NCBI GenBank assembly: GCA_010909165.1
Contig: VJWM01000223.1
Location: 1-64,000, forward strand
Direction of reading: 5' to 3'
DNA: 64,000 nucleotides
DNA from: Anthoceros angustus
Lineage: Eukaryota; Plantae; Anthocerotophyta
This document shows positions 2,977 through 43,138 of the stretch, one piece after another. The translations under genes and the position numbers were made by a program. A model generated the notes under the pieces. That model had not been told where the DNA came from. It was given only the letters and a program-made list of their open reading frames with translations, and did no database searches. How positions within the stretch are numbered: position 1 is the stretch's first letter; every line of letters starts with the position of its first letter.

Positions 2977-5649
2977 GACTAAAAATTGTCTGAATAAAAC
3001 ACTCGACTCGCCTTATCGAAAAGTCAAAGAAAAGTCACCGCCAGCGGCCTGGTATTGATTTGTCCAGAGTATTCCGAATATTTTGGCGACTGCTCGCCGC
3101 TGCTCGCATCCACGATTATTTCGTGCTGTGTTCTTGGGGGCTCCGCGCTCTCCCGTTGCGCTCCACGCCCAAATAGCCAGCGGCGTCAACCAAGAGGCAT
3201 GAAGGAATCCAAACACGTCACGAAAAGTGGTGGACCACACGGATAAGTTGATGGTGAACCAATAATGAGAGTCTAGATTACGGTTGTCTTTGTTTTATGC
3301 GGGTTGGTCCATTTGCACCAGCTACCTTAGCGAAATAGAGCCCGCGTGGAGGTTGTGGGATGAAGTGATTGACAAACCGGCATGGCTCATGAATTTGACG
3401 GAAGGGGAACCAATACTAACTTTGATGGAATGCCATACATAGTCTCGTAGAGGAAGGATTGATAAGTTATGGTGTTTTGCGTTACGGGTGGACAAACGAG
3501 ATCACTCCGTCAGAAACTCATGATCCCATCACCCAAGTCGGTCAAGTAGGCCAAGTGGTCGGTTGAGAGGGAGCATAGTCCCATCCGATCCATAGCATTT
3601 GAAGAGTAGTGGTGGAGTCGGAATGGAATATGAAATAGCGCCTAGCAAGAATGATGTGTTCTTGGCGGACATGGCGCATGTCGCTGATTTTGAGGAGAAG
3701 TTTAGGTGGGCAATCGATGAGATGGTGCTCAAGTACAAATCGAGTTTACACCGAGATGGCATTGAGGAAGATGAGCACGTTTCTTGCGAGAGGCGTTAAC
3801 GCGTGCTATCGGAAGCAAGGACCGAGATCTTGCAAGATGCGCGTGCTCGCCAAGGCAAGAATGGCCAAGAAGATGTTGAAGGTGGATGAGGTGGAAGAGG
3901 CGTCCGGTTCTACGGTGACACCATTACATACCGTGGATGAGATGTTCGCCAAATTCGCGAAATGTTTCCGTCCATAGAAAAGATTCGGAGTCGAAGTTCA
4001 CCATCAAGCATAACGAACCTCCGATCCGCCTTGAGGTTGAGGCAACGGTAAAGACACGCGTGTGAAGACAATGCGGGAAGCCGCCCAGATCTACATAGGC
4101 TCTCCCGGGAAGGCAAAGGAGGGTGATTGCCAATTTCTTGCATATGATGCACGCAGTGCGGCTGTGGAACAAGCCTATGAGATGGCCGAGCGGGTCATGA
4201 AGGCGATCTGACCGTGCCTATTGGGAGGAGCACAATTTGGTCGGGGGAGATGCCGTGAATAACCCAAGGTTTCATGGTAGAACCACCAACATACTCGGAT
4301 GAATCTGCGGAATTCCCCAAACAAAGGACATATGGCCAATAAGCGCCGCCACTAAAACAGCGGTGGAATGCCTTGCTGAGGGGGCACACAAAGCTTTCGT
4401 GTGAATGCGGTGGGGAAGCGAAAAGGAGCGTTGTCGCACGTGTGCCAAGACCGACATACTGAGCGGCGTGTTGGCAGCCCATCCCGAACTCAAGCCAAAG
4501 GCGGTAGGCGGATGTCGGCCAGAGGAGGGTACACTCGGGCGCTCCTCGGTGAGGTGCAGTGCAAGAAAAATTGGCCATGAGCGTAAGCAAGTTCGGTTGT
4601 CACCACGAGAGTATGATTCGGATCCGAGGTGTATGCACTAATGACCATGAGGTCGTTTGAGGATGACAGCCTTGACTTGGGAAGGCATGCGGAGAAAGAA
4701 GGCCGAGGAAAGGAATCACTCAAGATGCCCAAATCCTTGACGGTGAAGAAGACCGAATGCGGATGTAGAGAAATCACCTAGTGAGCTCATGCTTGAGAAG
4801 GTGATGGATGCCGTAATGAGTTTGCGTGACCTCGGGGTCAAAACACAACCATTGAGGCAAGCGTTAAAGGCCCGGATGCGTATGAGACTACGGGGCGTGA
4901 GGTGTCCGGATGTGTTTGGGTGAACACCTAAAGCTGCGCGCAGGGCAAGGGGCATTGCCATGGTGAAAAACCAAGGCCGAGGTGACGATCAACGGTTCGC
5001 CAACATGTGTTGGTGGACACGGGTGCGGACCGGTATTGCTCGGGCGTGCAAAGCCCTCATTGCGGAGATAAGCTCAAGCCATGTGATGTCCACATCACCA
5101 CATCGCGGAACCAAGGAACGAGTAATGGGAATGACCCGTGAGCCGACGCATAGAATTGCCGGAACCAAGGATGCCTCCATTGTCGGGTTCACCGCTGGTA
5201 TCTAACGCAAGGAACTATGACGTGTTACTTGGGGTGATGCCACACGGCCCAAGAATGGGGTAGATCCACTCGAGCATTTCTGAGCCACGATGGCGAGATG
5301 GAGATTTCACACGTGGCGGGATACCACTTGACATGAGGCGACGGATGAAAAATCAAATAGCATGGTGGCATTCACGGCTTGTTCGGCGGATGTTGTGCAG
5401 AGGCAAGTGGTTTGGGAAGAAACCCAGGATCTCATGCGGGAAGAGGTACAGGAGAGGATGTGGAGCCTGCAAGTGCATGTACATCAGGAAGAACCCCATG
5501 CTATCAGAGGCATTGTCTCGGGAGCTCACCCGACGGAGTCAGTCCAAGGCATGGAAGGCCTCCCACGGGCGTCCAGACAACCATATGCCTAAGAGAATTT
5601 GGATGATACCACCTTGAGGATCAACACGGCCGTGATTCGGTGGCAACCT

Positions 5650-6500
5650 GAGCGAGGCATACATCGATGGAGTTGTGTTCGTGGATCGAGCGGGCTTGAA
5701 GATTAAGAGTGGAATGCGAGTAAAGAAATACACGTGTGTCGAAATAGATGAGAAGGCACGCAAGAGTGTCGGGATCATCGGGATGCAAAGAGCGAGCATG
5801 GAAGCGGTGAAGGGATGTCGAGCAGCTGCCGTCCGATGTTAGCTTGGTGGGGAAAGCAGCTTGAAAGCCATCGGTGTCCGGTCGATGTGTTAGTTGCGGG
5901 ATGGGAATGCGGGACGCTTTCAGAGCTGGTTGTGGAAAGGGTGACGGTGTGGAGATGGCTGCGAAGTGATTAGGATTACAAATACTGAGCAACCCAACTT
6001 GGTACCTATTGGAGAATGTCTGGAGCATTAGACAAACGCGAGCACATCGTGAAGAGCTATGAAAGCTCGGATGGTGGCTAGGTGAGAATTTGTCATTGAT
6101 GCTGTCGGGTTCATATGCCCATCGCGGCGGAGTTTTTGGACCAACATCACCAGGTGGAGGTGTTGAGGCAACATCGAACGACCAAGCCGTAAAAAACGAT
6201 ACGTGGATGAGATTCGGGGCAGGCGGATGTTCTCGGTAGGTCGAAGGACGGACAAACCGTGCTTTCCAAAGAAACAAGATTGGGAAGCCGAGAAGGGCCC
6301 GCCCACGTAAGAACTGCCTTATGCCTTCCGCAGAGGTGGGGACGGCATGGTAGTGGATGTCGCCGGAACGAGTGGTGAGCCCACGGTGGCCGAGCGTGAA
6401 CGAGCCATGGGATTCGACGATGGGACATCACGCGAGGCATCTCCGGCATATCGCCGCAAGTTGCTCGGACAAGCATTCGACCGACTTGCTGCTACCGTTA
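5650..6500 (+). CDS. C5-cytosine DNA methyltransferase domain (DNMT3/DRM-like) inside Gypsy pol, frameshifted
   Basis: Motifs in unpermuted order: I-like MELCS (5667); II YTCVEIDEKAR (~5729-5761); IV VDVLVAGWEC (5881-5910, Cys TGC at 5908); VI WYLLENV (6000-6020); VIII GSYAHR.R.FWTN (~6108-6145); IX ERERAMGFDDGT and X RRKLLGQAFD (in ORF 6347..6700). Confidence 0.85.
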
Positions 6501-9199
6501 TTGAACGTGGTCACACAAATGGGCGGTACAAGACGGAGGTGAGGCACCTATTGGTACTCGAAGGCGAGTTTCCAAAGCATCGTGAAGAAGGTACATCGCG
6601 GACGCGACAATACAAGCCGAGATGGTGTGAATTGACACATGAGTGGCGGATATGCGAGGAACTAGAGCCGATCAACCGAGATCCGGATATGCTACGGTGA
6701 AACCGCCTTCGCTCGGTGAAAGTAGGCGGTATGATCGCATCAAATTCAAGATCACCACCACCACTAGTGAACCCGTGTTCGACGAAGGCACGAGTCCCAT
6801 GGAGTGGGACATCGTGAAGAAGATGCAAGGAATTGGCGGCTAGGGGCTAATTAGGAAGTCCACTTCACGCTGGCTACCGTGTTGCCATTGAAGAAGGATG
6901 AAAATGGCGAATGGAAGGCGGAGGATGTGTGGGGACTATCGTGCTCAATGAGGTGACGCTTATGGAACGATATCCTATGCCCACGGATGAAATTTTCGAT
7001 GCCATCGGCGCCAATTTCACTACGTTGGATTTCGATCTTCAATCGATTGTCATCGAGAGAAAGACAAGTGCAAGATGCCGGGGCAAAGACCAACTTTGGG
7101 AATGGGAAACGATGCCGTTTGGTCTAAAGAACGCGTCATATACTTTCGGTGGCGATTTGGAGCTGCAGGGGCTGCCGCTTTTACGATGCTACATCGATGA
7201 CATCTTGGTGTTTAGCAACCGAAGAACATCTCCAGACTGAGATTCTATTCAGAGGTTGGCCGATCGGGATTAAAGGCACATCCAAAAATGCAAGTTCGCA
7301 TATAAGGAAATAGAATACTTGGGACACAAGATAGTTCCGTGAGGGTGCTGCCTCGGTTGGCTAAGGTACGTGCAATTGATCTAATGCCTCGACCCGACGG
7401 CGTCAGCGTTGAGGGCATTCTTGGATGTCAACTACTATCGCCGCTTTGTCCGCAACATGAGTAGTGTGTGCAAAGCAATATGAATTGCTCAAGAAGGAGT
7501 GCCCGCATGGGAACAAGAGCAAGAACAAGAAGCGAGTTGAAGAACCAAGGCGGAAGGCCAATGTTAAAAGGCCGACTTTGAGAAGCCTTTGTCTTGTACG
7601 GATTGAGTCGGTGGTCTTGGGGCATGCTAGCTCAACAGACGAGGAAGGCAGAGGCGAGTCGTCATATGCGATAGGTCCAACAATGCCGCGGAGGCAAACT
7701 ACGTCATATGAAGGGAATGCTCAGCGGCCGTTTGGGCGGTTTACATTTCGAGTGTATTTGTTTGGTCGGAGCTTCGGTTGATCACGAGATCATCACCCTG
7801 GCGCTGATGACAAACATGAAATTGAGCGGAAACTTGCCGGATGGGCGCTTTGCTTTTGCGATATGCAGTTGTGCATCGAGCGGGCAAAGTGCATCTCAAT
7901 GCCGACTCGGCAGGAACCCGGTGCGACAAAGGTGATGCGGGAGCAAGGCAGACTTTGGATCCACTCAAGGCATGCCTGATTACTACATGGCCCTCATGTC
8001 CATAGAGCAAGAAGATGGAAGGCATCCGGAGGGAGGGAGACATCCGCGAATGAGCAAGCCATACATCTGCGGGAAGGACAGATCCGTATGGACTCTACAG
8101 TTACAACGGAAGATCATCGTTACACCTATGAAACGGCAAAGTATGGTGATGGATCGTGGAGTACTCAAGGAGGTACCACCCATAGGGAGAGGAAGCAATT
8201 GGCAACCAAGGTGCACATCACGCTTGGACACTTTGGGGTAAACGAACGCATCACATGTTGAAGAACGCCTACTTTTGGTCGTGGATGTATGCGGATGTTG
8301 AAAAGGTGGTGGCCAAGTGTGCGTGTGATGCTTAAGGCCGGGTTCAACCCGGGATGTGGTGTCGCGCCCATCGTGGGACTCTTCTTGATGGTCTCGACTT
8401 GATGCTGAGCTACCAATCACCAAGCGTGGCAGACGCATGTTGATGATCGAGCATTTTCAAAATGGGTGGAATTGGCCTTCCGCCGATTAGAAGTTCGCAG
8501 ATATCGCCCGAGCATTTCGCAATGTGTTCTCGGCAGATATGGTAGTTGTTGAGTGCTAATGACCAAGGCAATGAGTTTCGAGGAGAGTTTCAGCGTTCGG
8601 ATCGAAGCGATAGATCACGAACTCCCGAGATCACCCTCGGTGATTGGCGGAGCGATTAGTCACAGACTTTCAAGGATTCGCTGAAATATTGCATGGAGAT
8701 TGAGCCCGCTTGTTGGGATGAGCTATTGCCTTATGTGGCTCGGGATACCGAATCGCAAGCCGCTCTTGGCAACCAGTCAAGTATTACATCATGTTTGGCA
8801 AACGGTCATGCCAAACATAGTGGCGGAACTTACCTCAGCGTGGGTGGGCAGACGAAGGATGTCTTTCGAATTGCAAGCAAGAGCCGAGTTATTTCAGCGT
8901 GTGATGGTGGCCATGGACAACCTAGCCAGGATCGACTTGGTGCATTACTGTGGAGGTTCGTGGAAAGCAAAAGCAAGGAAGTTTGAGGTGGGTGACTTTG
9001 TTTTATCGCATCGACCCTCAACCACTTTGGACGTAAGCCTGGGCGCTTGATTTTGCGAGTGGTACGTCGGTGAACAAGGGGTGATTGAGTTGGAAGGGCA
9101 GGATGGCGAAGGTGTAAAGAGCACATGCGGCATTTGGCCCCATGCCATTTGCCCAATCTGACACGAGGACACAGCGCTGTGCTTCCGGAGACCACGATT

Positions 9200-9335
9200 G
9201 ATCTTGCCCAGCAGGTTCTGCGGCCGTGTCTACGATTGGAATTAATGCTGCCTACGACCAAATGCAAGGGTACCATATCTTTTGCCCTACGTGCCGCTCA
9301 AAATATTCCAGGCGATTGGTTTTGCCACCATTTTC
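9200..9335 (+). CDS. PHD finger at the C-terminus of the Gypsy integrase region, frameshifted
   Basis: Read across frames: DLA(C)QVCG...ELML.(C)DQC.KGYHIFCL..PL..IP.GDWFC, matching the C4HC3 PHD consensus (MLLCD.C..GYH..CL.PPL..IP.GDWFC). Confidence 0.75.
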
Positions 9336-9421
9336 CTGGCAGACAAAGTAGCTGGGGAAGCCAGGCGGCTCATGGTGGCGAGACTCGACCCAATAGGGGC
9401 AATAAAGTGAGGGCGTTCACA

Positions 9422-9642
9422 TGTCGCGCGGGCGATGCGGCGTAGGTGTAGAAATGATTGGGGGGTATACTGCTCGGTGTTTGGAGCCCTAAACGGCATC
9501 ATGGTGCTCAGGCAAAGAAGCTGGGGCATCGGGCCGGGGTGTGTGGCGAGAAGGCCAGCACCACGAGCGCGTGAAGACCTTGTAGCGGCGGGAGTCGTCT
9601 GGTCGCAGCGAGGTCGGAACTCTCACCGGGATGAACGATTGT
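9422..9642 (+). mobile_element. Probable 5' part of the 3' LTR of the DNMT-Gypsy
   Basis: Starts TGTCGCGC shortly after a purine-rich stretch (aataaagtgaggg) downstream of the PHD. The exact reverse complement GCGCGACA lies at 26215-26222. Confidence 0.5.
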
Positions 9643-10123
9643 GGGTGTGGATTCGTGTCCGAGGGGACAAGTGAGGTCCACATTCACCCCTCAATGTCGT
9701 TGTAGGCTTAGGATTCGCTCCCAAGGGAATGGTTTGTGCCAAGAGGCGCTAACTTCTATCATGACCTTCACCTAAGTCAAGACTTGCACTGTACTCCTCT
9801 TACCTATCTACTCAACCACTACTACCCCCTTGTCTAGCCACCACGGCTCTTATTCCACGACCGCCCTCTCATTCCACGACCCGGTGCTCTCACCGGTAGT
9901 TGCTACCACCGGTGGGTCCACACCCAAACCCTAGCGACTTATTTCCGGCCGCGCGCGGATCTGCCAGGCGTCCAGCGCGGATCCGGCTTTATTCGCACTC
10001 CACACACACACACCGATTCCTAGGGACCTAAATTCCACAAATCCCTCACGCTCCACACACACACAAAGGCGCCACACTCACACAACTTTACAAGGGCAGC
10101 TGTTCCCCTTGCGCCTTCCACCA
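9643..10123 (-). mobile_element. Truncated second copy of the Athila-like element (PBS, leader, start of gag)
   Basis: Near-identical to 19546-20019, including the PBS-like minus-strand TGGTGGAAGGCGCAAGGG (~10104-10123). Confidence 0.85.
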
Positions 10124-13100
10124 ATGGTTTGGTTTCTTTTGGATTCACACAATCTCCTTTAGCCTCTCAATTAGTTCCCCTTCTCAACCCCTCTCACACC
10201 TCGCGCATCTGATGTTTAGTCACTCCTTCACCCAATCTTCTCCTCTCTCTCTCTCCCTCAACTTTGCTTCCAACCATCCACTCAACACTTCTCAATTGAA
10301 CACAACTAGCGAGGACAAGTGTGAAGGAAAGAAGAACCCCAGGCGTCACGGCGGCGTTGAGCAAGCTCCGGACCGCGCCAATCCCTTGGTTTCCTCCTCC
10401 TTTGTCGGCCAAGATTGCTTTCACCCCTCCTCCCAGTGCGGAGCAAGCTCCGGACCGCGCCAATCCCTTGGTTTCCTCCTCCTTTGTCGGCCAAGATTGC
10501 TTTCACCCCTCCTCCCAGTGCGGAGCAAGCTCTCGACCACCCTAGGGCGTCTCGCCACCGCCTCTCAATCGGACGTCTCCAACCAGCCACACAGGCGTGG
10601 GGATCTCAACCGAGTGCTCGGCGTGAGGGACCTAATTCGCCCCTCTTATACATCGGTGGGGCACCACCGGATTTTAGGTCCTAAGATGGCTATCGCGAAG
10701 AGGCGCCCACAATTCGGGCGATCCTAGGTCGATCGGCATCTAACCAAATTATCTTTAGGTTGCTACCACCTCATGTCTGCGCGCCCTACCTCGACTTGGC
10801 GTCGGCCTCGTCCTCCATTCTGCCGCCACGAGCTCTGCCACGCTGGTGGACGGGTTCTCCCACTACTTCCACCTCACATCGCTGCTGGGCGTCCGAATTT
10901 GAGGTGTACCCTGCCACAGGGCTTCGCATCTTCCCTATTCTTTGAGGATTATTCGGCTCCTCGTCCACCCAAGCTGGACCTCCTCCTCGCTCAACTCCTC
11001 CAAAGTCGCCTCCGCATAATAGGAGCCAACCCCCACCGGCGCGGTAGAAGTATGCACCGGGTCCTCACTTGCATGGGTAGGCCACGATCCCTCCTATTTC
11101 CACACGCACATGGGCGGTGAGGTTAAGCCGCGTTCTCCATTCACATATAGACCGGGCACATAAGTTTCCTCATCCATGTGCCGTAATATAATAGGACCCC
11201 TATGCGGTGAGGTGCTTACCCCCTCCTCCCGTAGGCTACACAGTTGCACGGCCTATGTCCTCGCGGCGCCACGTCGCATCCATCGCCCCGGCCTGCACCT
11301 TCGGGTTGGTTGCGCCAATGTCGGTGGCGGTTTCGACTACGCGGTAGTGGACTCCACGGCCTCGTTCGTTCGGCAACCGGTAGGTGAGGTTTCGGCTACC
11401 TCGGTTCTTTGCTTCCTTCGGTGTCCGCTACTCGATCGTGGTCACGCTACCGCTTCCCCTTCCCTTTGTCTTTTACGGCCCGGCCCGTGCCTCATCCGCT
11501 CCGCTTATATCGCTCCGCTAGCTTATGGGCCTTTTCCAGAGGCTTCACGCTCTGGGCTCGCAACAACTCCCCACCATCTCTGGTTCGCCTCGTGGGCATC
11601 CTTAATTTGAGCCATGAGTGCTTCCTGGCTCGTCATGGCTTGCAACTTCTCACAGGCCTGCACAAATCTTCTTGAATCTTGGCCCTTATTTCCTCTAGGT
11701 TCCGCTTGTCTTCCTCCATTGCTTGCGCTTGGCCTCCTCTTCGTCAAACGGCCTTCACCACTTCCTCCGTCGCACCGAGCCGGTGAGAGCTAAAGCGCTT
11801 GATCCAACAAATGCTTGGGCCGGATCATCGGCGTGGTCGGCTCACGCAAGTCCACTTGTTGTGGCCCCGGCGCCATCCCTCATCGAGAACTTTCCTCCCA
11901 GTGCGCACCCTCACCAATTCGGTTGCATCCACCTCTGTTGCGGTGGAGTCCCTTGAAAATCTCTTCCCATCTTTGAGGAGGGTCCGCCTCGAGGTCGACC
12001 CTAAACCCTCGGAGTTGATTCATCATCGCATCCGTCGCAAAATTGTCCTCGGATCGCGCCTCCTCTTCGCCACCTCAAGCTGCCGTTTGGCTTTCATTTT
12101 CATGTAGCCTTGGCGACCTTTGTGGCGCGCATCCGCCTTCACCTTTTTATGCCGCCTTCACCCCGGTCTTCCTCCTTTTCTTTGGTGGGAATTTCCTTCT
12201 CCTCCTCCAGGCACTGTCGCCACTCCCGGCTATCCGATTTTTCCTCCTTGGGCTCCTCCGCCTTCCATTTCACCTCCCTAAGCTTCCACATGTGGAGGAG
12301 GCTACAATCTCCACCTCGGCGGGGCGGTTAGCGTAAACATAAAGATGGACGGAAATGGTGAGATTAGAGGCGGGGGGAGGAAATCAAGTTCAACCTCTCT
12401 TCACACAACTTGTCGAAGAGAATTACTCGATCTTCGCCCCTTGACCACTTCATGAAGGAGCGGCGGCGGCAAGTGGTCGGACAAATAATCGCTTCTTGTC
12501 TTTGCGAAACATAGGAGCCATCGGCGGACCCATCAAGCTGTTGCCAAATCCCTCGTCAACCGGCCGTTGGGTTCATTCGCCCGCTTTAACGGGCTGCTGC
12601 TTCTTCTTTGCTTCTTTTCTGGGCTCCATCACCAACCCGCCCGCCTCCTCCTTGCCCGCCCATACACCCTTCTAACCACTCCGGTCCCAATCCTGCGGCT
12701 CTAAATCCCCCGCTGGTTCATCGCCGGTGGCGCACACTCCTGCCAGTCCAGTTCATGTAATTCCACCGCTCTTCCATGAAACCCGGCTTGACTCCTTCAC
12801 GGCTCCCATCGAACTTTCCAATGATCCATGTTCGGCCATTGGGCAAGCACAATTTGTGGTGACCTTGGCGCCATCCTCTCACGGTCTCGCGCCTCCGCGC
12901 CACCTCGCTGCGAATTTCACGGAGGTCGGTCTCGGGGTTCCTACCTCCTCGGCAAGGGCGCGTCTGTCGCGCCTTCCTCCTCCTGCGTCGCGCCTCGCGA
13001 TATCGGCAGCGGGGTTGAGCTCCTTCCCGTCGTTGCGCCTCGCGCCCTCCTGCGATCACGGTGCCCCGGACCGGCTCCTCGACTTCGTCCCGCCGCGTCG

Positions 13101-13526
13101 TCGCTCCGCCCGCTCGCTCCGTCCGGCCGCCGTTGCGCTCCGTTGTTTGAGCAGGATTACATCATTCCTAGGGTTAAGTTTCCCGGTTCCCCTACTCTGT
13201 TAGACCTCTGCTTCCACATCCCAATCCACAACCCACACTCATTCGGCTACCAGCGTGGTCGACCCCAACTTATAGACTCTAATTATTCCAAACCCCCTAT
13301 CTCACATATATAGACTTTTTAGGGAACATTAGTCCATGGGCCAAGGAACACCAAATTCCGGACCATTTATTTTCTAACCTAGGCAATAAAACAAAAAGAA
13401 CTCCATAGGCCAAGGACATTTTACTATGAATATCCCCAACTACCAATCGACTTATTTTCACACCACTCAAAAAAAACAAAAAATTCACTTGGGCACATTT
13501 TGAGTTTCGAGACTAGATCGTTTACA
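10124..13526 (-). repeat. Long LTR (~3.4 kb) of Athila-like Gypsy, left copy
   Basis: Direct repeat of 20020-24286. Minus strand begins TGTAAAC at 13526, preceded by a PPT. TATA-like TGTATAAG near 10645-10652. Confidence 0.85.
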
Positions 13527-13540
13527 TACTCCCTTCTCAT
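13527..13540 (-). other. Polypurine tract
   Basis: Minus strand ATGAGAAGGGAGTA directly abuts the LTR start TG. Confidence 0.7.
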
Positions 13541-13559
13541 TTGTTGGCGTCCCGCCAAC

Positions 13560-16500
13560 TTATATAATACTTCTTGACCCTCCACCCATTGACTCGGGTG
13601 GTAGTGGAGGTCCGCTAACTCTTGCGGTTGTCTTGAGCCATTCTTGAAGACTTGAGAACCCTATGGCCCCATCCATCGAAGGTGGAGCTTGCGGAAAGTG
13701 CATGTACCTATTGTCGTGCAATGAGGCCAAGTCAAGAATCACCCACTCTTGCTTCCATAGATTGTCATGCCATATTTTCCTTTTACTTTGAATATATCAT
13801 GACGCTCACTGTTCCCCTATCCTCTGTATGTTTAGAAGCGACCAGGCGTTCGGTGACTTTCCTCTCGCCATGCGGTTAGTTTCACAGATCGCGGTGGGAA
13901 TTTCAAACTCAATAGGCATTAGGAGAATGGCGTAGGTGAGGTAATACGGTGTTTGTTGCGTTGTTATTTTCTCTGCGATCCTGTATGCCGGGCGCGGGAA
14001 GCTTAAGATCCCGATCGTCGCGTATTCCACCGTTAGCTTGTTGAGGATCACCACAAGAGCCATTCGCCTTTTCCGTTAAGCCATTTGCCTTGGGATTATA
14101 AGGAGTCGTTTTCTGTGGCGACGTTGAAGTAGATCGTCATATGAGATATAACCGTTGTGAAATGTGACCCTCATCGTGACAAGCTCAAGGGACAGCCATA
14201 TCGGTGATAATCATTCATAGAGGAACTGGCCACTACATGGTTTTGTACTGCGTGCTTGGGCTTCCACCATACGCGTGCAATGATAGTGGCCACGAGGATG
14301 TATTGGTTTTGTCGCGTCCTCGTTTTGGTGTATGGGACCAACAAAGTCTATTCCCCATTTCTCGAATGGCGCGGGCCAATATTGGAACCATTGGCCATTG
14401 AGTGGTTGCGGACGGTTTCCCAACCCTCTGACAGGCATCGCAGCGTTTAACAAACTCCCTAGCATCCTGATGCATGGTTTGCCACCAGTACCCCGTTTCA
14501 AGCACCTTCTTGCACGTGATATGTGCAGCAAAATGTCCTCCGCTTCCCCTCGTGCATCTCGTATTTTCGGATAACGCTCCTTGTTACCCATAACTGTCCG
14601 CCCATCCGGTCCCGATCATGATTGTCTTTGCGTCGTACAAGCGGGCGAATAGTGCCTAAACGCTTTGCGGGGGTTTGAAAGATCCGATGGTATTTTCCCC
14701 GTTTCCAAGAATTCCATCATCTCCTCGTGAGTGGGCCTTGTGTATCCCGTTCTCCCCTTCTCATTTCCTGCCGAGCCACCATTTACCCTCGCCTTATGGT
14801 TGGTGCGCTTCCCCTCTAACTTTCATGTGACAGGCTTCATCGGGAAAATCGTCGTTTTGGTCCTGTGTAACCTCCTCTGTTTTCAGCCTCGAAATGTAAT
14901 CTGCATTCACATGTTTACTCCCTCCTCTGGTCTCCACCGTGAACGTGAATTCTTGCAGGAGTAGGATCCATCTTGCTATGCGTCCAGACAAGTCAGTTTT
15001 GTTTACCAGGTGTTTGAGGGCGAAGTGGTCCACATGGAAGACGAACTCGTAGGATAGCAAATAGTGACGAAACTTGCGAACCGAGTACACCATCCTAGCG
15101 CCTCCTCTCGGTGGTGGTATACTTCTTCTGCGTCGGTGCTGCCTCCTGCATAATAGATTGGATAATCGTGCTTCTTGTCATCCCTTTGGCTTAGAATGGT
15201 ACCGATTGCATAGGCGAAGCGTCTACAAACACGTGGAACTTCTTGTTCGATCGGCCCCGCGTGGGTCTTGTGATCGGTGGTGCGAAGATCATTGAAGGCC
15301 TCCTCTCGTTTTGCGTCCATTCCACTCCGGTCCTTGCGAAGCAATTACATGGCGGGTGCCCTTACGGAGAAATTCTTCACAAACCTTGATAATAGCCTAC
15401 CATTCGAGGAATCCCTAAGCTCCTTGATTGTGGTAGGTGGCTTGAGGTAATGATTTTGACCTTATCCGGGTCGACCTCTATCCCATGGCAATCGGTGCCC
15501 CAACAAAATACCCTCGGCATGCCGAAATAACACTTCTCGGGATGTAGACACAATTGTCTGCATTGACCGTTCGGACATTTGCGAAGGTGGTTGAGGTGAT
15601 CTTTTGCTGCTCCAAACACGCGAAGTCATCCGGAAGACCTCCATGAAGTCCCTAAGGTATTCCTTGAAAATCTTGACAATCGCATGAAGGATCACGGTGC
15701 CCTGTTAATCCGAGCGCTCCGTTTGTAGGCATAGGTTCCCGATCATAGTGAAGGTGGGGCCAATCACTCTCACGAGATGTGATTATACCCGAATACCCAT
15801 CCGAGCAGGTAGACCATTCTCCCGCTAAGTCCGATTATGTTGTCTATGAATGGAAGCGGGTAATGGTCTTTTTGGTCACCTTGTTTAACTTCCTCCAATC
15901 TGGGACCGTATCTTCCCTTACGCTTTTTGGGAACCACCACAATTGGGGCTACCCACTCCGATGTCACAATAGGATATATGGCGTGCAAGTAGAGCTCAAT
16001 TGTTCCTTTACCTTGAATACTTTGGATTTAGCTTGTATTGCGGTATCCGGGGCACGGCTCGAGATCAATCTTGTGCTCCCCACTCCCTCGGTATACCCTT
16101 CATATACGTAACGTCAAAAGCAAAACGTGGATAAATTCCATGCAATTTGTTTCATACCCCTTTCCAAGTCTGCATTCATCCTTCGAAAACTTAAGGACCT
16201 TGCCGGGCAACACTTCCACATCCTTGACCTCATCCGTGCATGCCTCTCTCTCCACCGGCGGATGTGATGCGAACCCTTCCTCCTGTCTTGGTTCTCCTTG
16301 GCGCATTCCCCATTCCGGAATAGGTCGTCGAGGTAAAGCGTGAGACACCCTCCTCGCACCCTCGAAGTTTGTCCGGATCGCTCGGCTCACCTCTACTTCT
16401 TGTTCCTCGACCTCTCCGGTCTCCTCTCCGACCACGGGTTGTCAATTGTGACTCCATAGCACCCTAATAGGTTGATGGAATGGGAATATCTCTCCGTGTA

Positions 16501-19500
16501 TCGTCCTCTTCATCGACCACGAAATATGCGAATGGGAATTTCTCCTTCTCATCCTCTCCCAGGTATCTTGAGGTGTATCCCTCCGTTTCGTGGGTGTCTC
16601 CCTGCGTCGTATCTGCTCCAAGTCAAACATATCCTTCCTCCTTAATTTTGGGGTCCCGTCCAGGTTTGAATCCACTTCCTTTCTCGCCCATTTGAAGGTG
16701 CAACGTGCCCCATACATCCATGTTCGTCAATGAGAACCTCATACCACAGCGCTTTTTGTTTAATGACCACGTAGTCCATGAGGTGCGGAATGGTACCAAT
16801 ATGGGTTAGGACTCCGTCGGCTCCCCTACCGGCGCCATTTTGGACATGTCCGCAACACCTTTGATGTATGTTCTCTGCAACCCAAGCTTAGGCGGTCTCC
16901 TCTGTCATGATGTTGACTCGACCCGGAATCTAGCGGCACCTTCTTGATTACACATCCATAATTTCTATCTAGCTCCAGGTCACAGTCCATCATGGCCACC
17001 ATATTCACAGCAAGGGATTTCGGCCTTGGGGTGGAAAGGTTCCGTCTCTTCTTGGGTTGTGCCGCCTTCAATGCCCCAGTTCTTTGGCGGTCTGCGGATT
17101 CCACGAGGCATGAGCGTTATCATGAACTTTTGGTCCATGATAGCGTCATAAATTGAAAGGAACACTGTGCTTTGTTTCTCCTTGCCAACCCCACCGTCAT
17201 TTCATCCATGATGGTATTTGAGATGTTGCGGTCGTTGAAGCAGGCGTGGGTGGGTCGGTGGGTCGATGGCCAAAATACGGCCGAGTCTGTTCGATTCTTG
17301 TCGGATCATATCCATAACCTTCCACGACATCGGTGAGCGCCGACTCATCCTTTTTTCCTCTTGCGGGTTTTCGCCCCATGTGTCGACTCGAGTCCACTTC
17401 GTCCGTCCTTGTTTTACCCCTCGAATCCAGCGGTCTCTGCTAAGGAGTTACACTGTGATGCCATCCGAAATCGCAACCCTCGCGTTAAGTGTGGCGTTAG
17501 TGCCTTGCTCCCGTCCATTTTGGATTCGCATGCCCTTTTCTTTTTCGGCTCCCATCGAGTCCCTCGTCGATTTTGTGGTTGGACTTCTCTTCCTTCCCGC
17601 TTTGATGAAGCGCCTCTTCCTCCTCACTTGCGGACGTTATGCTCCCACTCCGTTCTTCTTCCTTTTTCCTCGCTCCCCTTCTTAGGGTGTCGCCTTCCTC
17701 TCGCCGCTCCGTGTCCGAGACCATCGCGGGGTTCCGTAATACCCACTATCCACATCCCCAACCCTTCCGGGCTCCTCGTGCAGCCTCGGAATCCTCCATC
17801 TGACCATGGCGCATCTTGACTTGCATTGCGGCAGCGGGCTTTCTTGTCGGGGGTGGGTCGCCGGAGGTTGAGCGATCCTCACTGTTTTTTCGGTGTCTGG
17901 CGGAGGCCACGTGACTGATTGCTTGCGGTCCACACGTCTTTCAAAATCACCATTCCCTGGCGAGATGCGGAGGGGCATCCAGCAAGATGCGAACCCTCGG
18001 CAATTGTAACCTTGGGCGGCACTCATTTGCGGGGTTCCTTGCCATCGATTGCGAATGCCCATGCACGTGGGGTTTCGCAAACTCGAGTACAAAGTTTTGG
18101 TACCAGATCGGTGTTGCCTCTTGAATTTGGTATGTATCTTCCAAGCACATCTCCTCATCCTCTTCCTCGTAGCCCAGTGGTTGCACTTTTGTTTGTGGAT
18201 TCGACCTCGAGTGCCCTCATCCACAAGTTGAGCGAAGAGATTCGCCCGCGCTCCGGTAGCAACCCTTCTTCTATCATGGTCCTTGATGGCATTAAGATGG
18301 AGTTTCTCGGTTTGACCATCATTTCCTCCATCTTGTTCCCTTGTTGCTCCACTTTTTTTGGCTGTTTCCACCTCTCTTCTCACACTCCGCGTCCTTTCGT
18401 GCATATAGCGGCTCCTTCCCTTTTGCACGTCGTCTTGTTTCCAGTCATTTTTCCCTTCTTCCTTCTATCCCTTGATTTCGCTCATCGTGAATTCTCCTCC
18501 GAATCCTCATGGTCTCCTCTTGGTGGAGCTACCGGGAGTCGGTTGAAAACTATCCTCCTCCATGAGCTGTCATCGGAGGCGAATAGTACTTCTTCTTCTT
18601 TTGTATTTCTTTTGTATTTCTTTTTGTCCTTAGTGCGCCCTTGTTGAGTTCTTCTTCTCTTCCGCGTTGGACTCCTCATAGTTCGAGCGGCTTTAATCGC
18701 CCGATCCAAATCTTTCGGCACATACGTGCCTTCCCATCTCCAATCCTCTTGCAAACCGGTGAATGGCCATTAGCTCAGTGCGGACCGGCCCGATCCGTGG
18801 GGCTGGAACCTTTCCACATAAGCTGCGGTCTCCTTCTTCCCTCTCAATCCCTCCAGTTTGGACAAGACATATCCTTCCACATCGACCCCTCTGATCTTTC
18901 ACAAAAGCTCTCTTCAAGGCCCCAAAGTAGGCGGGGTGTGGAAGCTATGTACTCCGCTTGTACCACTTGGCGCCGCTCGCGTAAGACTCCATAAAGCAGT
19001 GGGCACGATCGCATCCTCACGGTTGTGGCGTCAGCTCAAAGCAGCTCGACAAACTCGTCGGGATCCTCATGGCCCTTCTTTTCTCCATACGGGTAAGATT
19101 GCTTGTAGTAACAAAGATCGGCCATAAGGTAGTACTTTCAGCGATTGGTAGTTGGCGCCACTACGTGCGGGTGACCTCTACATTCACAGTTATTTGGTGC
19201 GGTGGTCTAGGCAATTTGGGCGAGATCAAAAGACAAGGTGGAATCGGGTACACGGCCCCTTATGCTCGTAGTCGAGGTTGGGAATCGAATCCGTTAAGAT
19301 CGATCCCTAGTTAGAGTTGACTCCTGCCCCTTCCTCGTCCGGCAAGTGTGATCTCCGCCCGTGCTCTCCTCGTAACTCTGCAATCTTTCCGCTTGGCGTT
19401 GCCGTCTTGCGAGCGTTTCCCCAGTCGGATCGAATCGCTTGTCTCCACCGAGGCATCCATCAATCTAGTAATGCTAGACTCTCGTAAGCTAGGGTTAGTC

Positions 19501-19740
19501 CTTCCTCGTCCTTGGCGATTCCATTCCCCAGCGGCGCCAAAATGTGGAGTGTGGATTGTGTCCGGGGACACCGTGAGGTCCACATTCACCCTCAATGTCG
19601 TTGTAGGCTTAGGATTCGCTCCCAAGGGAATGGTTTGTGCCGAGGCGCTAACTTCTATCATCGACCTTCACCTAAGTCAAGACTTACTTGCTATTACTCC
19701 TCTTACCTATCTACTCAACCACTACTACCCCCTTGTCTAG
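13560..19740 (-). mobile_element. Athila-like (non-chromovirus) Ty3/Gypsy gag-pol, frameshifted
   Basis: Protease VPLDSGSS (~16915-16940); RT IYPIVTSEWVAPIVVVPKK and KDHYPLPFID (ORF 15770..15988); RNase H VRKFRHYLL...DHFALKHL...GRIARWILLLQEF (14794..15093); integrase GYWWQTMHQDAREFVKRCDACQR and PFEKWGIDFVGPI (~14330-14505). Gag start approximate. Confidence 0.9.
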
Positions 19741-20000
19741 CCACCACTCTTATTCCACGGCAAATCTCATTCCACGTCTGTCACACCGGTGCTCTCACGG
19801 TAGTTGCCACCGGTGGGTCCCACCCAAACCCTAGCGACTTATTTCCGGCCGCGCGCGGATCCCGCAGGCGTCACCATGCGGATCGGCTTTGTGCACTCCA
19901 CACACACACACACCGATTCCTAGGGACCTAAATTCCACAAATCCTCACGCTCCACACACACACAAAGGCGCCACACTCACACAACTTTACAAGGGGCTGT

Positions 20001-20019
20001 TCCCCTTGCACTTCCACCA
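20001..20019 (-). other. Primer-binding site
   Basis: Minus strand TGGTGGAAGTGCAAGGGGA immediately inside the 5' LTR, complementary to a tRNA 3' ...ACCA end. The tRNA was not identified. Confidence 0.6.
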
Positions 20020-23000
20020 GACGGTTTGGTTTCTTTTGGATTCACACAATCTCCTTTGCTAGCCTCTCAATTAGTTCCCTTCTCAACCCTCTCACACCTC
20101 GCGCCAGCGTCTGATTGTTTAGTCACTCCTTCACCCAATCTTCTCCCTCTCTCTCTCTCTCCCTCAACTCGCCCGAGCTTCCAACCATCCACTCAACACT
20201 CTCAATTGAACACAACTAGCGAGGACAAGTGTGAAGGAAAAAGAACCCCAGGCGTCCACGGCGGGCGTTGAGCAAGCTCCGGACCGCCCGCGCCAATCCC
20301 TTGGTTTCCTTCCTCCTTTGTGCCAAGATTGCTTTCACCCCTCCTCCCAGTGCGGAGCAAGCTCTCGACCACCCCTAGGGCGTCTCGCGCCTCACCTGTC
20401 AATCGGACGTCTCCAACCAGCCACAGGCGTGGGGATCTCAACCAGGAATTGCTCGGCGTGAGGGACCTAATTGCCCCTCTTATACATCGGTGGGGCACCA
20501 TGCCCGGATTTTAGGTCCTAAGATGGCTATCGCGAAGGCGCCCACAATTCGGGCGATCCTAGGTCGATCGGCATCCTAACCAAATTATCTTTAGGTTGCT
20601 ACCTCACCTCGCTCTGCGCGCCCTACCTCGACTTGGCCGTCGGCCCCTCGTCCTCCATTGCTGCCGCCACGAGCTCTCGCCGCCTGGTCGGACGGGTTCT
20701 CCACACTACTTCCACCTCACATCGCTGGGCGTCCGAATTTGAGGTGTACCACCCTGGGGCTTCGCATCTTCGGCCGCCTATTCGAGGATTATTCGGCTCC
20801 TCGTCCACCCAAGCTGGACCTCCTCCTCGCTCAACTCCTCCAAAGTCGCCTCCGCGCATAATAGGAGCCAACCCCACACGGGCGCGGTGGTAGAAGTATG
20901 CGCCGGGTCCTCACTTGCGATGGTAGGCCACAGATCCCTCCTATTTCCACACGCACATGGGCGGTGAGGTTAAGCACGCGTTCTCCATTCACATATAGAC
21001 CGACATAAGTTTCCTCATCCATGTGCCGTAATATAATAGGACCCTGCTGCGGTGAGGTGCTTACCCCTCCTCCGTAGGCTACACACAGTTGCAGCCTATG
21101 TCCTCGCGGGCGCCACGTCGCATCCCGCCCGCCTGCACTGCCCGGGTTGGTTGCGCCAATGTCGGTGGCGGTTTCGACTACGTAGTGGACTCCACGGCGT
21201 CGTTCGTTCGACAACCGCGGTAGGTGAGGTTTCGGCTACCTCGGTTCTTTGCTTCCTTCCTCGGTAGGCCCTTCCGCTACTCGATCGTGGTCCTGCTACC
21301 CGCTTCCTTCCCTTTGTCTTTTACGGCGCCACGTGCCTCATCCGCTCCGCTTATATCGCTCGCTAGCTTATGGGCCTTTTCCGAGGCCGCTTCACGCTCT
21401 GGGCTGCAACAACTCCCCGCATCTCTGGTTCGCCTCGTGGGCATCCTTAATTTGAGCCATGAGTGCTTCCTGCTGGCTCGTCATGGCTTGCAACTTCTCA
21501 CAGGCCTGCACAAATCTTCTTGAATCTTGGCCCTTATTTCCTCTAGGTTCCGCTTGTCTTCCTCCATTGCTTGCGCTTGGCCTCCTCTTCGTCAAACTGG
21601 CCTTCACCACTTCCTCCGTCGCGCACCGAGCGGTGAGAGCTAAAGCCGCTTGATCCAACAAATGCTTGGGCCCGGATCATCGGCGTGGTCGGCTCCTCGT
21701 CCACCCAAGCTGGACCTCCTCCTCGCTCAACTCCTCCAAAGTCGCCTCCGCGCATAATAGGAGCCAACCCCACACCGGCGCGATGGTAGAAGTATGCGCC
21801 GGGTCCTCACTTGCGATGGTAGGCCCCATCCCTCCTATTTCCACACGCACATGGGCGGTGAGGTTAAGCCGCGTTCTCCATTCACATATAGACCGGCACA
21901 TAAGTTTCCTCATCCATGTGCCGTAATATAATAGGACCCTCTGCGGTGAGGTGCTTACCCCTCCTCCGTAGGCTACACAGTTGCAGCCTATGTCCTCGCG
22001 CCACGTCGCCCCGCCCGCCCCACCGGGTTGGTTGCGCCAATGTCGGTGGCGGTTTCGACTATGATGTGGACTCCACGGCCGTCGTTCGTTCGACAACCGC
22101 GGTAGGTGAGGTTTCGGCTACCTCGGTTCTTTGCTTCCTTCCGCTCGGTAGGCCCGCTACTCGATCGTGGTCCTGCTACCCGCTTCCTTCCCTTTGTCTT
22201 TTACGGCCCGCGTGCCTCATCCGCTCCCCTCGCTAGCTTATGGGCCTTTTCCGAGGCCGCTTCACGCTCTGGGCAACAACTCCCCATCTCTGGTTCGTCT
22301 CGTGGGCATCCTTAATTTGAGCCATGAGTGCTTCCTGGCTCGTCATGGCTTGCTTCTCACAGGCCTGCACAAATCTTCTTGAATCTTGGCCCTTATTTCC
22401 TCTAGGTTCCGCTTGTCTTCCTCCGGTTGCTTGCTTGGCCTCCTCTTCGTCAAACTGGCCTTCACCACTTCCTCCGTCGCCCTGCGAGCCGGTGAGAGCT
22501 AAAGCCGCTTGATCCAACAAATCTTGGGCGGATCATCGGCGTGGTCACTCCTGCAAGTCCACTTGTTGTGGCGGCCCCGCCCCATCCCTCTCGAGAACTT
22601 TCCTCCCAGTGCGCACCCTCACCAATTCGGTTGCATCCACCTCTGTTGCGGTGGAGTCCCTTGAAAATCTCTTCCCATCTTTGAGGAGGGTCCGCCTCGA
22701 GGTCGACCTAAACCCTCGGAGTTGATTCATCATCGCATCCAGTCGGCAAAATTGTCCTCGGATCGCGCCTCCTCTTCGCCACCTCCAAGCCCGTTTGGCT
22801 TTCATTTTCAGTGGCGCGCTTTTCGACACAGTGGCCAGCGCGCATCCTTCACCTTTTTCGTGATGCCCTTTCACCCCGGTCTTCCTCCTTTTCTTTGGTG
22901 GGAATTTCCTTCTCCTCCTCCAGGCGCACTGTCGCCACCGACTCCCGGCTATCCGATTTTTCCTCCTTGGGCTCCTCCGCCTTCCATTTCACCTCCCTAA

Positions 23001-24286
23001 GCTTCCACATGTGGAGGAGGCTACAATCTCCACCTCGGCGTTAGCGTAAACATAAAGATGGACCGAAATGGTGAGATTAGAGAGGCGAGGCGGAGGAAAT
23101 CAAGTTCAACCTCTCTTCACACAACTTGTCGAGAATTACTTAATCGATCTTCGCCCCTTGACCACTTCATGAAGGAGCGGCAAGTGGTCGACAAATAATC
23201 AGCTTCTTGTCTGCGAAACATAGGAGCCATGGCGGACCCATCAAGCTGCATTGCCAAATCCCTCGTCAACCGGCCGTTGGGTTCGCGTCGCCCGCTTTAA
23301 CGGGCGGCTGCTGCTCTTGCCGTGCTTCTTTTCTGGGCGGCTCCATCACCAACCGCCCGCCTCCTCCTTGCCCGCCCATACACCCTTCTAACTCCGGTCC
23401 CAATCCTGCGGCTTTCTAAATCCCCGCTTTGGTATGTCCTTGGTGTGGCGCACTCTGCACGGTCCAGTTCATGTAATTCCACCGCTCTTCCATGAAACCC
23501 GGCTTGACTCCTTCACGCTCCCAGCTCGAACTTTCCAATGATCCATGTTCGGCCATTGGGCAAGCACAATTTCGGTGGTGACCTTGGGCGCCATCCCTCT
23601 CACGGTCTTCTGGTCTCGCGCCACAACCGCGCCACCTCTGCGAATTTCACGGAGGTCGGTCTCGGGTTCCTACCTCCTCGGCAAGGGCGCCCGGCGTCGC
23701 GCCTTCCTCCTCTGCGTCGCGCCTCGCGATGTCGGCGGGGTTGAGCTCCTTCCCGTCGTTGCGCCTCGCGCCCTCCTGCGATCACGGTGCCCCGGACCAC
23801 GGCTCCTCGACTTCGCGCTTGACCGTCGTCGCGCTCCGCTCGCTCCGTCCGGCCGCCGTTGCGCTCCGTTGTTTGAGCAGGATTACATCATTTCCTAGGG
23901 TTAAGTTTCCCAGGTTCCCCTACTCCTGTTCGACCTCCACGACCGCTTCCCCACATCCCGATCCACAACCTCACACTCATTCGGCTACCGCCGCGTCGGT
24001 CGACCCCAACTTATAGACTCTAATTATTCCAAAACCCCCCCCCTATCTCACATATATAGACTCTTTTTTAGGGAACATTCCGAGTCCATGGGCCAAGGAA
24101 CACCAAATTCCCGGACCATTTATTTTCTAACCTAGGCAATAAAACAAAAAGAACTCCATAGGCCAAGGACATTTTACTATGAATATCCCCAACTACCGTC
24201 AATCGACTTATTTTCACACCACTCTCGGCCAAAAAACAAAAATTCACTTGAGGCACATTTTGAGGTTTCGAGACTAGATCGTTACA
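20020..24286 (-). repeat. Long 5' LTR (~4.3 kb) of Athila-like Gypsy with ~0.9 kb internal tandem duplication
   Basis: Matches 10124-13526. Minus strand starts TGTAACGATC at 24286. Segment ~20794-21690 is repeated at ~21690-22545. Confidence 0.85.
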
Positions 24287-26222
24287 AATGCCGGCGGTGA
24301 TGGTCACCAACATGGCCGTGGCGCAAAACGGCCAGTGGTGCATCTGGCGTCGTGAGGTTGATCCTGGCCAGGCGTCCGTGCATCGGTGATTGGTTGTTTG
24401 CAATCCATGGATTAAAATCGCCTTCTTTGGTTTGACGAGTCTTGACCGTGAAGGGCTGAAGTCGCCATCACACGCTCCGCCGCCTCGCGTCTTGTAAGGG
24501 CGGCATCACGGTGGGCGATTGGAGGCGAGTGGTGTCGTGAAGGACCAATTGATTGATCGGTGCATCGCTTGGCGGTAGTGGGCCGCCGTGACACCGGGAT
24601 TCGCGGTAAAGTACGTGGTGTGGTGCTAAGGTGGTCCTATAATGGATTTGGAAGCGGATCATACACCGCAAAACACCTTGCGCATGTGGCGTGCCCCAAT
24701 TCCAGGCGTGGGAAGATAAGTGGCGCACTCCTTTGAGTGCGCAAGTACCCGGCTGGGAAGCGAGCGGCCCGAAGCGTTCACGGAATTACAGGCGTTCTTG
24801 TTATCGTGGAGTCTCATCATGAGACATGCAATGTTGAGAATTTTCCATATGACCCGCGAGGACTTGTTCGAACTTGCGGAAGGGGATGAGCAGGCAATCG
24901 TTTGTGTGGACTAGCTTGTGAAGGGCGTTTACGTAGTTGGAACATCACCTCTTTATGCATCAAGTTTTTGATCATTGGCCTAAGGAGGTTTCGATGTATA
25001 GGCGGCGGGGAGAAACACAGAGACTTGCGTGGTCGAAGGTGTGGCTTAGCCATTTGCATCAGCGGAGACGATCGCCGCCGGCTATCCAAAACTTTTATCG
25101 CCTATTTGCTTGTCTGCGGACGAGAATTTTGGAGTGGGATGAGCCCTGAGTGCTGGTACTTGCTGAACAACAACGTGGGTGGATATTTGCGCACACAATG
25201 CATCGACAAAGCGATTACTACGTGAATGGGTTGAATGGACCACGGATGGCGGTCAAGGCGAGCTTGGCGGTGATGAGGAAGAGGAGCTAATGGCTCGACA
25301 TCGAGCAGAAGCAGCGATTGGGAAAGCGCAAGTAGATGAGTACTTTGATCACGAAGAGCGGTGGCGGCTCTCGGCAGCGGCCCGACTGGCGACCCTCCGA
25401 ACCCGGCGGTATGTTTGACGGTTCTCTGAGAAGATTTTATAGGATATGAAAATGCCCAAAGTGCTGCTTTGACGTGTGTGCCGCTACTTTGGCGGGGGCC
25501 ATTGGCGATTCGAGTTTTGTGGATTTGATCAATCACGTCTTTGTGCAAACACTTAGCAAAGTGCGGTTTATGGTTATTACCCTCCGCACTAGTTACAGTC
25601 ATCACGTGTCACAGCGGCTATGCGGCCCGTAAGCGCGGCGGTATCATGACATCTGATGTGATAACTTGTGAGTGGATATGTTGATTAGATAGGATGTGAA
25701 TGAGCATGGTATGCATGCCCACATAAGCATGCACACATAAGCATCTTTGATAACCATGTGTGTGACCTGCGGAGGCCGTGAACGCCGCGTAACAGCGGGT
25801 AGCGGACCGTCTTTGGGCGGCGTCACGGCGGAATTATGGCGCGCCATGGGCGGCGATCCTCTTGGGCGTCAAGGCGCGCAGCGGGTGCATGATCGGCGGG
25901 AAGGCGCGCCAAGCATTTAAGCGATATAAAGTAGGCTCCAATCCGCGGTGGCAAGCGGATTGCGATGTTGTTCTTACAGGCGACCATACAGTCCCAATGA
26001 AGAAGGGTGCGGAGTTCCTTTGACAATCACGGCTCAGGAGGTGCGGGTGGATGGGCTTAGACCCGATTGAAGGGCGAATTTTGCCATTGGCGATTCGAGT
26101 TTTGTGGCTTTGATCAATCGTCTTGTGCAAACACTTAACTTAAGTGCGGTTTATGGTTATTACCCTCCGCACTAGTTACAGTCATCACGTGTCACAGCGG
26201 CTATGCGGCCCGTGGCGCGACA
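24287..26222 (+). mobile_element. Probable remainder of the DNMT-Gypsy 3' LTR
   Basis: Ends GCGCGACA (inverted match to TGTCGCGC at 9422). TATA-like GATATAAAG ~25923. ~135 bp direct repeat 25500-25635 / 26085-26220. Directly abuts the middle of an array unit. Confidence 0.5.
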
Positions 26223-41944: not shown

Positions 41945-43138
41945 GCGCAAAAGTCACAGTGCACTTCTCTGCGGATTCAAGTCCGAGGCAAATGCACAAG
42001 CTTGAAAGACAGCCACAAAGCCGTGAGCATCCGCCTTCACACGATCTCGCATGTCATGATGCAGTGTATGGCCTCTTCAGTTTCCATGTTCGAGTAAGCG
42101 GTGATGATGGAAAACCACATGAAGGCATATGGTTTCCCTACAGTGAACACATCCATGGCCTCCTGCAGCCTACCTCCACTTGCATACATGCGCAACAAAT
42201 GGTTCGCCAAGTATGCATGCGACTCGTACCAAGTTTGTGATAAGATCATGAACTCGTCGCCCCACAAACAAATCCTTCACGGCTGCACATAGTTTTAACA
42301 CGGCATATACGAGGCGGAAATAGGACAATTTTCCAAGCCCGGAGATTCCAGTACACCTCGATAAGCTTCCCTGGCGGCGTAACGTGATCACGGCGGTATT
42401 CTGACACCCATTTCCGATCTGCCGCTGCCGGCCTCACGATTAGCGGAGGCTCGGTGCAAGGAGACTCGCCATGAGCCATGCATATCCAAAAGCGTGCTCG
42501 TCCACCCAAGTTGGCTTGAACATCTTTGTTTAACGAGGACCTCGCTGGACCCCTTCCATGGGAATCGGGCGGCGGGGCTCTTCTTATCTACTTTGTTGTC
42601 CCACCACATCGTAGGGTCGGAAAAATTGTTGCCACAAGAGCTCCTTGTAGAATCCACCTCGCTCGCCACGACCATCATTGGAAAATCCTTCCCCACCACA
42701 CACTTTCGAAGGTGGAAGTCTTTGGGTTGCTCATCTTCTTTGGAGGTTTGGCTGGTTACCGATGCTTGACCCGAGGTGGCGTGCGTGGGAGCTCCTTGTA
42801 GAATCCACCTCGCTCGCCACTTTGTTGGGTCCACAAGGGATCCGGTTTCCATATTGTAGCCACGTTACAGGCACCGCCCTCGAAAGATGGAGCCGAGGCG
42901 GACACAAACTACCTATGAGCGTGATAGATCGGCCGGAGGACACATGCCCTTCATGCACACCTCCCTTCCGGATCTGACGCTAGTTTGCAACAGCCATCTT
43001 GCAACTGTTCATCCTGGGCGAAAACTCCAACTTGGGCAGCAAGCTTGAAAGACAGCCACAAAGCCGTGAGCATCCGCCTTCACACGATCTCGCATGTCAT
43101 GAATTCATTGGATGGAACCCTCACATTGCACCTGGCCA
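41945..43138 (-). pseudogene. OSB-PPR fragment, copy E (no solo LTR)
   Basis: Empty site gcaaggaGACTCgccatgag at 42463-42467. Confidence 0.7.

Follow-up and report, generated by a model that had tools for sequence, protein, structure and literature searches.

The window analyzed here, a 64,000-nucleotide stretch of Anthoceros angustus repeat DNA, contains a degraded Ty3/gypsy retrotransposon with a DNMT3-like domain in its Pol region and a PHD finger at the end of its integrase. Our preferred reading, to which we assign a probability of about 0.6, is that the element is a broken Gypsy-DNMT3 copy resembling KnitGypsy-Dnmt3, in which the integrase PHD would tether to nucleosomes with unmodified H3, away from H3K4me3 promoters, and the methyltransferase would act separately, on the element's own DNA. 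The copy itself deserves little weight, being broken and of a described kind. The gains, modest ones, are for the clade: Gypsy elements that carry DNMT3 fuse a PHD to integrase as a rule, their range takes in named chlorophytes as well as the reported streptophytes, and a finger predicted to be of the unmodified-H3 class offers chromodomain targeting a testable counterpart that would avoid H3K4me3 as opposed to seeking H3K9me.

Architecture of the Element

The element lies on the + strand at about 4000–9640, with the domain order protease–DNMT3–RT–RNase H–integrase–PHD; the succession of protease, reverse transcriptase (RT), RNase H (RH), and a DDE integrase is that of Ty3/gypsy. An aspartic protease remnant with a DTG motif near 5016 was recognized by eye from the translation (5007–5235), a region without a Pfam match in window pieces. 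The DNMT3-like C5 cytosine methyltransferase precedes RT (5667–6502) and is broken, scoring 125 bits against the relatives' profile with 13 breaks; FxGxG-like, GWEC (catalytic Cys), and ENV motifs are still legible. The methyltransferase that an earlier, sequence-only reading had presumed is present in the same Pol, as a domain of the DNMT3 family. An intact DNMT at related locus L017 has human DNMT3A as its top match (E = 4.6e-8). As a separate observation, catalytic motif IV is often GWEC in place of PC (37 EC versus 10 PC among 68 domains, the window likewise having GWEC), which may bear on DNMT activity.

The remaining Pol domains, all on the + strand, are likewise degraded, each interrupted by small indels. 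They comprise RT (6751–7333; RVT_1 E = 5.5e-4; relatives' profile 147 bits, 8 breaks), RNase H of Ty3/gypsy type (7568–7906; 80 bits, 14 breaks), and the zinc-binding domain and catalytic core of integrase (8167–8805; Integrase_H2C2 E = 3.5e-5; 141 bits, 15 breaks). A C-terminal integrase segment (8898–9160; 75 bits, 3 breaks), with a GPF-like motif and the clade motif APCHLP, joins the core to the PHD. In an alignment-based model of the relative P0104 (mean pLDDT 80.6; the Foldseek matches shown are integrases only), this segment is a beta-rich domain, and the integrase is closest to the Ty3 and foamy-virus integrases. No chromodomain was matched in window pieces, which sets the element apart from chromoviruses; PF00385 is listed in 2 of 119 relatives, after the PHD in P0051 and in the outlier P0131.

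A Real PHD Finger, Intact in Relatives

The PHD finger remnant, of C4HC3 type, occupies 9200–9334 on the + strand, 3′ of both the integrase core and the C-terminal segment. A frameshift-aware profile of relatives' PHDs scored 32.7 bits at 9170–9370 (150 shuffles, 12.8 ± 1.8, maximum 18.5), and over both strands of the window this interval ranked first of 640 bins, the runner-up reaching 21.6 bits. Several frame shifts spread the remnant over three reading frames. Five of the eight zinc ligands are readable—C2 (9219), C4 (TGC at 9263, in another frame than its neighbors), H5 (9274), C6 (9283), and C7 (9323)—and positions C1, C3, and C8 are Q, Y, and F instead of Cys. Eight ligands in one frame are found in intact relatives, not in the window copy. 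The finger called by the sequence-only reading stands in its identity and its place after the integrase, whereas the string it quoted as a single stretch lies in more than one frame. The PF00628 check it proposed divides in the same way: Relatives P0125 and P0134 score 43.5 and 35.3 bits (cut-off 24), whereas 72 single-frame pieces of 4000–9600 gave no match. The finger is therefore real and correctly placed, and intact only in relatives.

Most of the breaks in the window copy are probably assembly indels, because the LTR pair of a younger, apparently nested element just downstream is gap-rich and natural copies are substitution-rich. The LTR pair shows 234 gap openings versus 87 substitutions, with 55 transversions (two overlapping alignments); copies of a related family in the loci described below show 23 gap openings versus 8596 substitutions, 91% of them transitions (74 alignments). 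The true state of the window copy consequently cannot be read. It may be truly dead, since three ligands are unreadable, by our estimate somewhat more than expected from assembly error alone. More broadly, the whole assembly looks uncorrected, and no claim in this genome that depends on a frameshift is safe.

Relatives across Proteins and Metagenomic Loci

With the DNMT stretch of the window alone as query (6311–6553), 8 true relatives came up among 10 retrieved proteins. The seed relative P0003 (Haematococcus lacustris KAJ9512490.1) was recovered by this DNMT query alone, yet bears a PHD: Its order is RT-RH-DNMT-INT-PHD, and the finger exceeds the Pfam cut-off. The DNMT-to-PHD region of P0003 retrieved 119 related proteins. 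A full C4HC3 finger follows the integrase in 102 of these 119 polyproteins; this count and those of the loci below are biased upward, because the protein search and alignment A1 both used PHD-bearing queries. DNMT and PHD share a single ORF in 71/119 (architectures 35 + 31 + 5). DNMT immediately precedes integrase in most algal members, and P0143 and P0096 are protease-to-PHD polyproteins that lack a DNMT.

A metagenome contig scan yielded 80 loci of 526 confirmed; these are not independent since most are copies of one family; in this main family the PHD is the end of the ORF. The finger is present at 67 of the 80 loci, in the integrase frame at 61 of these and in one unbroken ORF at 14. The zinc ligands and the shared frame with integrase, on which the earlier reading had made its call depend, are thus both found in relatives. 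The DNMT-before-RT order seen in the window occurs at 29 of the 80 loci and the RH-DNMT-INT order at 3, so that DNMT takes two different places across the clade and the PHD is always at the integrase end. Collinear with APCHLP and integrase and in the same place in more than 100 relatives, the finger occupies the chromodomain position, as had been proposed. No relatives came from a viral_contigs search, pieces of the window matched nothing in two word-based searches of proteins, and no K. nitens sequence is among the retrieved relatives.

Trees of RT-RH-integrase place the window among the DNMT-first elements (support 0.99 in FastTree; SH-aLRT 98.9 in a second tree), on a long branch whose position within that group is unresolved. 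The P0096 group, which has no DNMT, is nested among DNMT-bearing elements. Seven rows were dropped from the first tree for low coverage (P0039, P0003, P0126, P0092, L063, L080, and L058), and the second tree leaves out eight near-duplicates.

Some relatives continue past the finger. At least 250 further residues follow the PHD in 37 of 102 PHD-bearing relatives (in P0104, for example, about 600–940), and most such tails align as a Tudor-like barrel and, behind it, a class I SAM-dependent fold similar to that of phage adenine methyltransferases. The methyltransferase assignment draws on atlas features (0.95–0.96), TM values of 0.54–0.59, and weak MethyltransfD12 matches; the Tudor assignment draws on weak Tudor matches. 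A DNMT3-like domain occupies the same ORF in 21 of these 37, parallel to EpiLTRs. Because motif I-like and IV-like patterns occur in only 8 and 5 of the 37, many tail methyltransferases may be inactive. A profile of the algal relatives' post-PHD tail had no match in the window.

Termini and Neighboring Elements

An unrelated LTR element on the − strand appears nested 300 bp 3′ of the PHD (9640–24286; LTRs 9640–13526 and 19543–24286), and its 5-bp flanks are unlike each other, giving no target-site duplication match. Its LTRs are very long (3.9 and 4.7 kb), its primer site is of TGGCGCCG type, and we take it to be Athila-like. Beyond it on the + strand, 24287–25497 is probably where the 3′ internal region resumes; it includes a degraded additional stretch that looks coding, and it gave no significant Pfam match. 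The interval 25498–26219 (+ strand) is the probable 3′ terminus, with B-A-B repeats laid out as in loci L017, L029, L054, L058, and L063; the two B copies (25498 to about 25636 and 26083–26219) are 94% alike and end in CGACA. A-coding-B-A-B repeats are complete in those five loci, and the window has only B-A-B, beyond the nested element; a 5′ copy of the A repeat was not found in the window. We infer that the two sides of the nested element, Pol and the B-A-B unit, belong together.

Eight related loci (the five above with L005, L068, and L071) start with TGT, end with ACA, and have 4-bp target duplications, five exact and three one transition off. Two of the elements stop at the end of the first B repeat, as would be expected had recombination collapsed B-A-B.

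Directly upstream, 1–2990 (− strand) holds a broken element identified by eye as Ty1/copia (gag-pre-integrase, integrase, RT), which may have removed or displaced the gypsy 5′ end. Farther downstream, about ten units of 3.3 kb are repeated in tandem over 26409–59873; they are 93–97% alike and differ mostly by small indels, and the array has interruptions near 42500, 53700, and 57300.

Predicted Histone Specificity

The closest solved structures are KDM5A/B/D and Lid PHD1, CHD4, PHF12, WSTF, BAZ2A/B, AIRE, UHRF1, and DPF (among the best 60 of 71 and the best 60 of 94 matches); ADD, ING, BPTF, and TAF3 are absent from the best 60 in either set. These matches place the finger with canonical C4HC3 PHDs of KDM5A-PHD1/BAZ2/UHRF1 type, not with ADD domains.

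We scored H3-contact positions on the fingers of 102 relatives after the KDM5A contacts in 10.1101/715474. The essential R2 aspartate (D312-equivalent) is present in 98 of 102, the L309-equivalent is L or M in 95, and 77 have an acid at position E305 or D306. The A1 pocket is kept, with P331 in 86, G333 in 81, and W335 in 86 (F in 15). A single finger of the 102 has the methyl-K4 cage tryptophan, whose position we take to be two residues ahead of the His. The commonest types lack the D315-equivalent acid, the second R2 contact (G in 52, N in 33 of 102). In KDM5A, loss of D315 weakens H3 binding (10.1101/715474); the cage tryptophan is described in PMC5415848. The fingers thus show the A1 pocket, R2 aspartate, acidic patch, and missing cage Trp of unmodified-H3 readers, minus the second R2 acid. 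Because the KDM5A contact residues are kept and the cage Trp is seen in one finger, we predict that the finger binds the unmodified H3 tail and that K4 methylation weakens this binding. The earlier placement among readers of the H3 N-terminus gains plausibility from the relatives, which carry residues typical of unmodified-H3 PHDs.

Candidate Roles of the Finger

In the preferred reading, the PHD would be part of mature integrase and would tether the integration complex to nucleosomes whose H3 N-terminus is unmodified. Integration would then be biased to H3K4-unmethylated chromatin and away from H3K4me3 promoters, so that the finger would do the chromodomains' job via another mark. The DNMT3-like domain would be a separate product, parted from integrase–PHD by proteolysis and acting on the element's cDNA. 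The proposed H3 binding and K4 preference derive from residues common to KDM5A PHD1, the targeting from analogy with chromovirus chromodomains, the proteolytic separation from general Ty3/gypsy knowledge, and the cDNA self-methylation from a hypothesis in PMC5890265. In Chlamydomonas, the active, PHD-bearing Gypsy-7a_cRei shows intergenic insertions at 2.6 times chance, a bias that its authors note may reflect selection (PMC9940879). Integration targeting seems a likelier job for the PHD than membership in a DNMT3-like physical pair.

The finger might instead choose no sites. It could be an appendage to the C-terminal domain of integrase, with a structural or protein-binding function, or it could act on chromatin after insertion, for example by dampening silencing. 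Some PHDs do have other partners (PMC10124903), chromatin restructuring has been suggested as a role of transposable-element PHDs (PMC8557442, PMC9940879), and the missing second acidic R2 contact is in keeping with such a role. Against this stand the near-invariant A1 pocket and essential R2 aspartate and the location of the finger at the site of targeting chromodomains, and we regard the proposal as unlikely, though worth keeping in view.

In animal DNMT3, the ADD domain combines a GATA-like and an atypical PHD finger, adjoins and regulates the catalytic domain, and reads K4-unmodified H3. The sequence-only reading suggested that the element may rebuild such a reader/writer pair. In a coupled model of this kind, the PHD would bring the DNMT3-like domain to H3K4-unmethylated chromatin in ADD-like fashion, and the insertion and its flanks would be methylated at integration. 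The predicted K4-unmodified preference agrees with the ADD read-out, DNMT immediately precedes integrase in RH-DNMT-INT-PHD members, and many relatives encode DNMT and PHD in one ORF (the 71 of 119 above). However, the canonical C4HC3 finger is not ADD-like, with no ADD among the best 60 solved matches of either search. In the window element, RT, RNase H, and integrase fill the roughly 2.7 kb (about 900 codons) from DNMT to PHD; RT and RNase H likewise intervene in its subclade. A rebuilt ADD/catalytic unit is therefore not borne out, and the physical pair is unsupported because the PHD is fixed to integrase and the methyltransferase moves or is absent: P0143 and the nested P0096 group retain the finger without a DNMT. 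The gypsy-type DNMT of KnitGypsy, moreover, gave no methylation in yeast, a result its authors deem inconclusive (PMC5890265). Coupling of reader and writer is thus improbable, and DNMT and PHD may still act together inside one particle. If the two were coupled, a transposon would have independently rebuilt H3K4me0-guided de novo methylation.

More doubtful again is a self-contained epigenetic installer, in which the integrase PHD would dock on nucleosomes lacking H3K4 methylation while the DNMT3-like enzyme encoded by the element would methylate the incoming copy and its flanks at integration, aided in some algal members by the post-PHD Tudor-like domain and adenine-type methyltransferase fold. 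Were it true, H3K4me0-guided de novo methylation would have been built convergently by transposons from chlorophytes to streptophytes. A further alternative, that Cys and His residues fall into this pattern by chance or that a piece of a host gene was captured and has no tie to the element, draws on the lack of a single-frame PF00628 match and the five of eight readable ligands, but is refuted by the relatives, which share its position and collinearity, and by an 11-bit lead over any other window match, leaving it very improbable indeed.

Comparison with Known Systems

KnitGypsy-Dnmt3 (de Mendoza et al. 2018) carries Dnmt3 in gypsy Pol together with DIRS-like A-coding-B-A-B repeats (PMC5890265). 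The name Gypsy-DNMT3 is used for streptophyte elements in a preprint (10.64898/2026.05.21.726589), and PMC12344493 and PMC6338049 give the same streptophyte range. The window element fits this published kind: A Dnmt3-related domain with unrearranged motifs lies in a gypsy Pol ORF. DIRS-like repeats are full in related loci, and the window has a B-A-B unit at the probable 3′ terminus of the element. Unlike our elements, KnitGypsy-Dnmt3 is described with no mention of a PHD in the main text and three text supplements of PMC5890265. The likeness is one of description, drawn without K. nitens sequences, and the present relatives reach named chlorophytes.

Both add-ons, PHD and DNMT3-like domain, are already known in gypsy elements. 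Gypsy-7a_cRei has a PHD finger in its Gag-Pol, for which a role in avoiding harmful insertions has been proposed (PMC9940879, PMC8557442); its domain legend, unlike the architecture found here, names no methyltransferase, and we set it beside the clade by description only. REM1 is a further PHD-bearing Chlamydomonas element (cited in PMC9940879; PMC8557442), PHDs are common transposable-element accessories (PMC8557442, PMC6673714), and fusions of the two are surveyed in a preprint (10.1101/2021.11.30.470311). Selaginella SM-Fogey and Selgy were considered as PHD carriers and set aside for want of support, "PHD" occurring 0 times in the searchable text of PMC3350952 and PMC6317226. In the literature within search reach, which stops short of subscription papers, theses, and Repbase, no paper names PHD and DNMT3 in one element.

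Among non-chromoviruses, REXdb Phygy shares the 4-bp target duplication and a similar size (7.7–10.0 kb versus 9.0–10.2 kb in most complete related loci; PMC6317226). It differs in having no extra domain in its REXdb description, and its NCGN target appears in only about half of our duplications, decay allowed for; compared by description only, it is a lead (PMC6317226). The PHDs of KDM5A/KDM5B (PHD1), BAZ2A/B, UHRF1, and AIRE are the top sequence matches and have common H3-contact residues, from which our fingers differ in lacking the KDM5A D315 acid.

Chromoviruses and EpiLTRs likewise place a histone reader at the integrase C terminus, and EpiLTRs pair that reader with DNA methyltransferases, combining chromodomain, DAM, and DNMT (PMC6317226; 10.64898/2026.05.21.726589). 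Both use a chromodomain as reader, and the cytosine enzyme of EpiLTRs, a sister of DNMT4, is accompanied by a DAM, whereas the window element, in which the chromodomain is absent, combines a PHD finger with a DNMT3-like enzyme.
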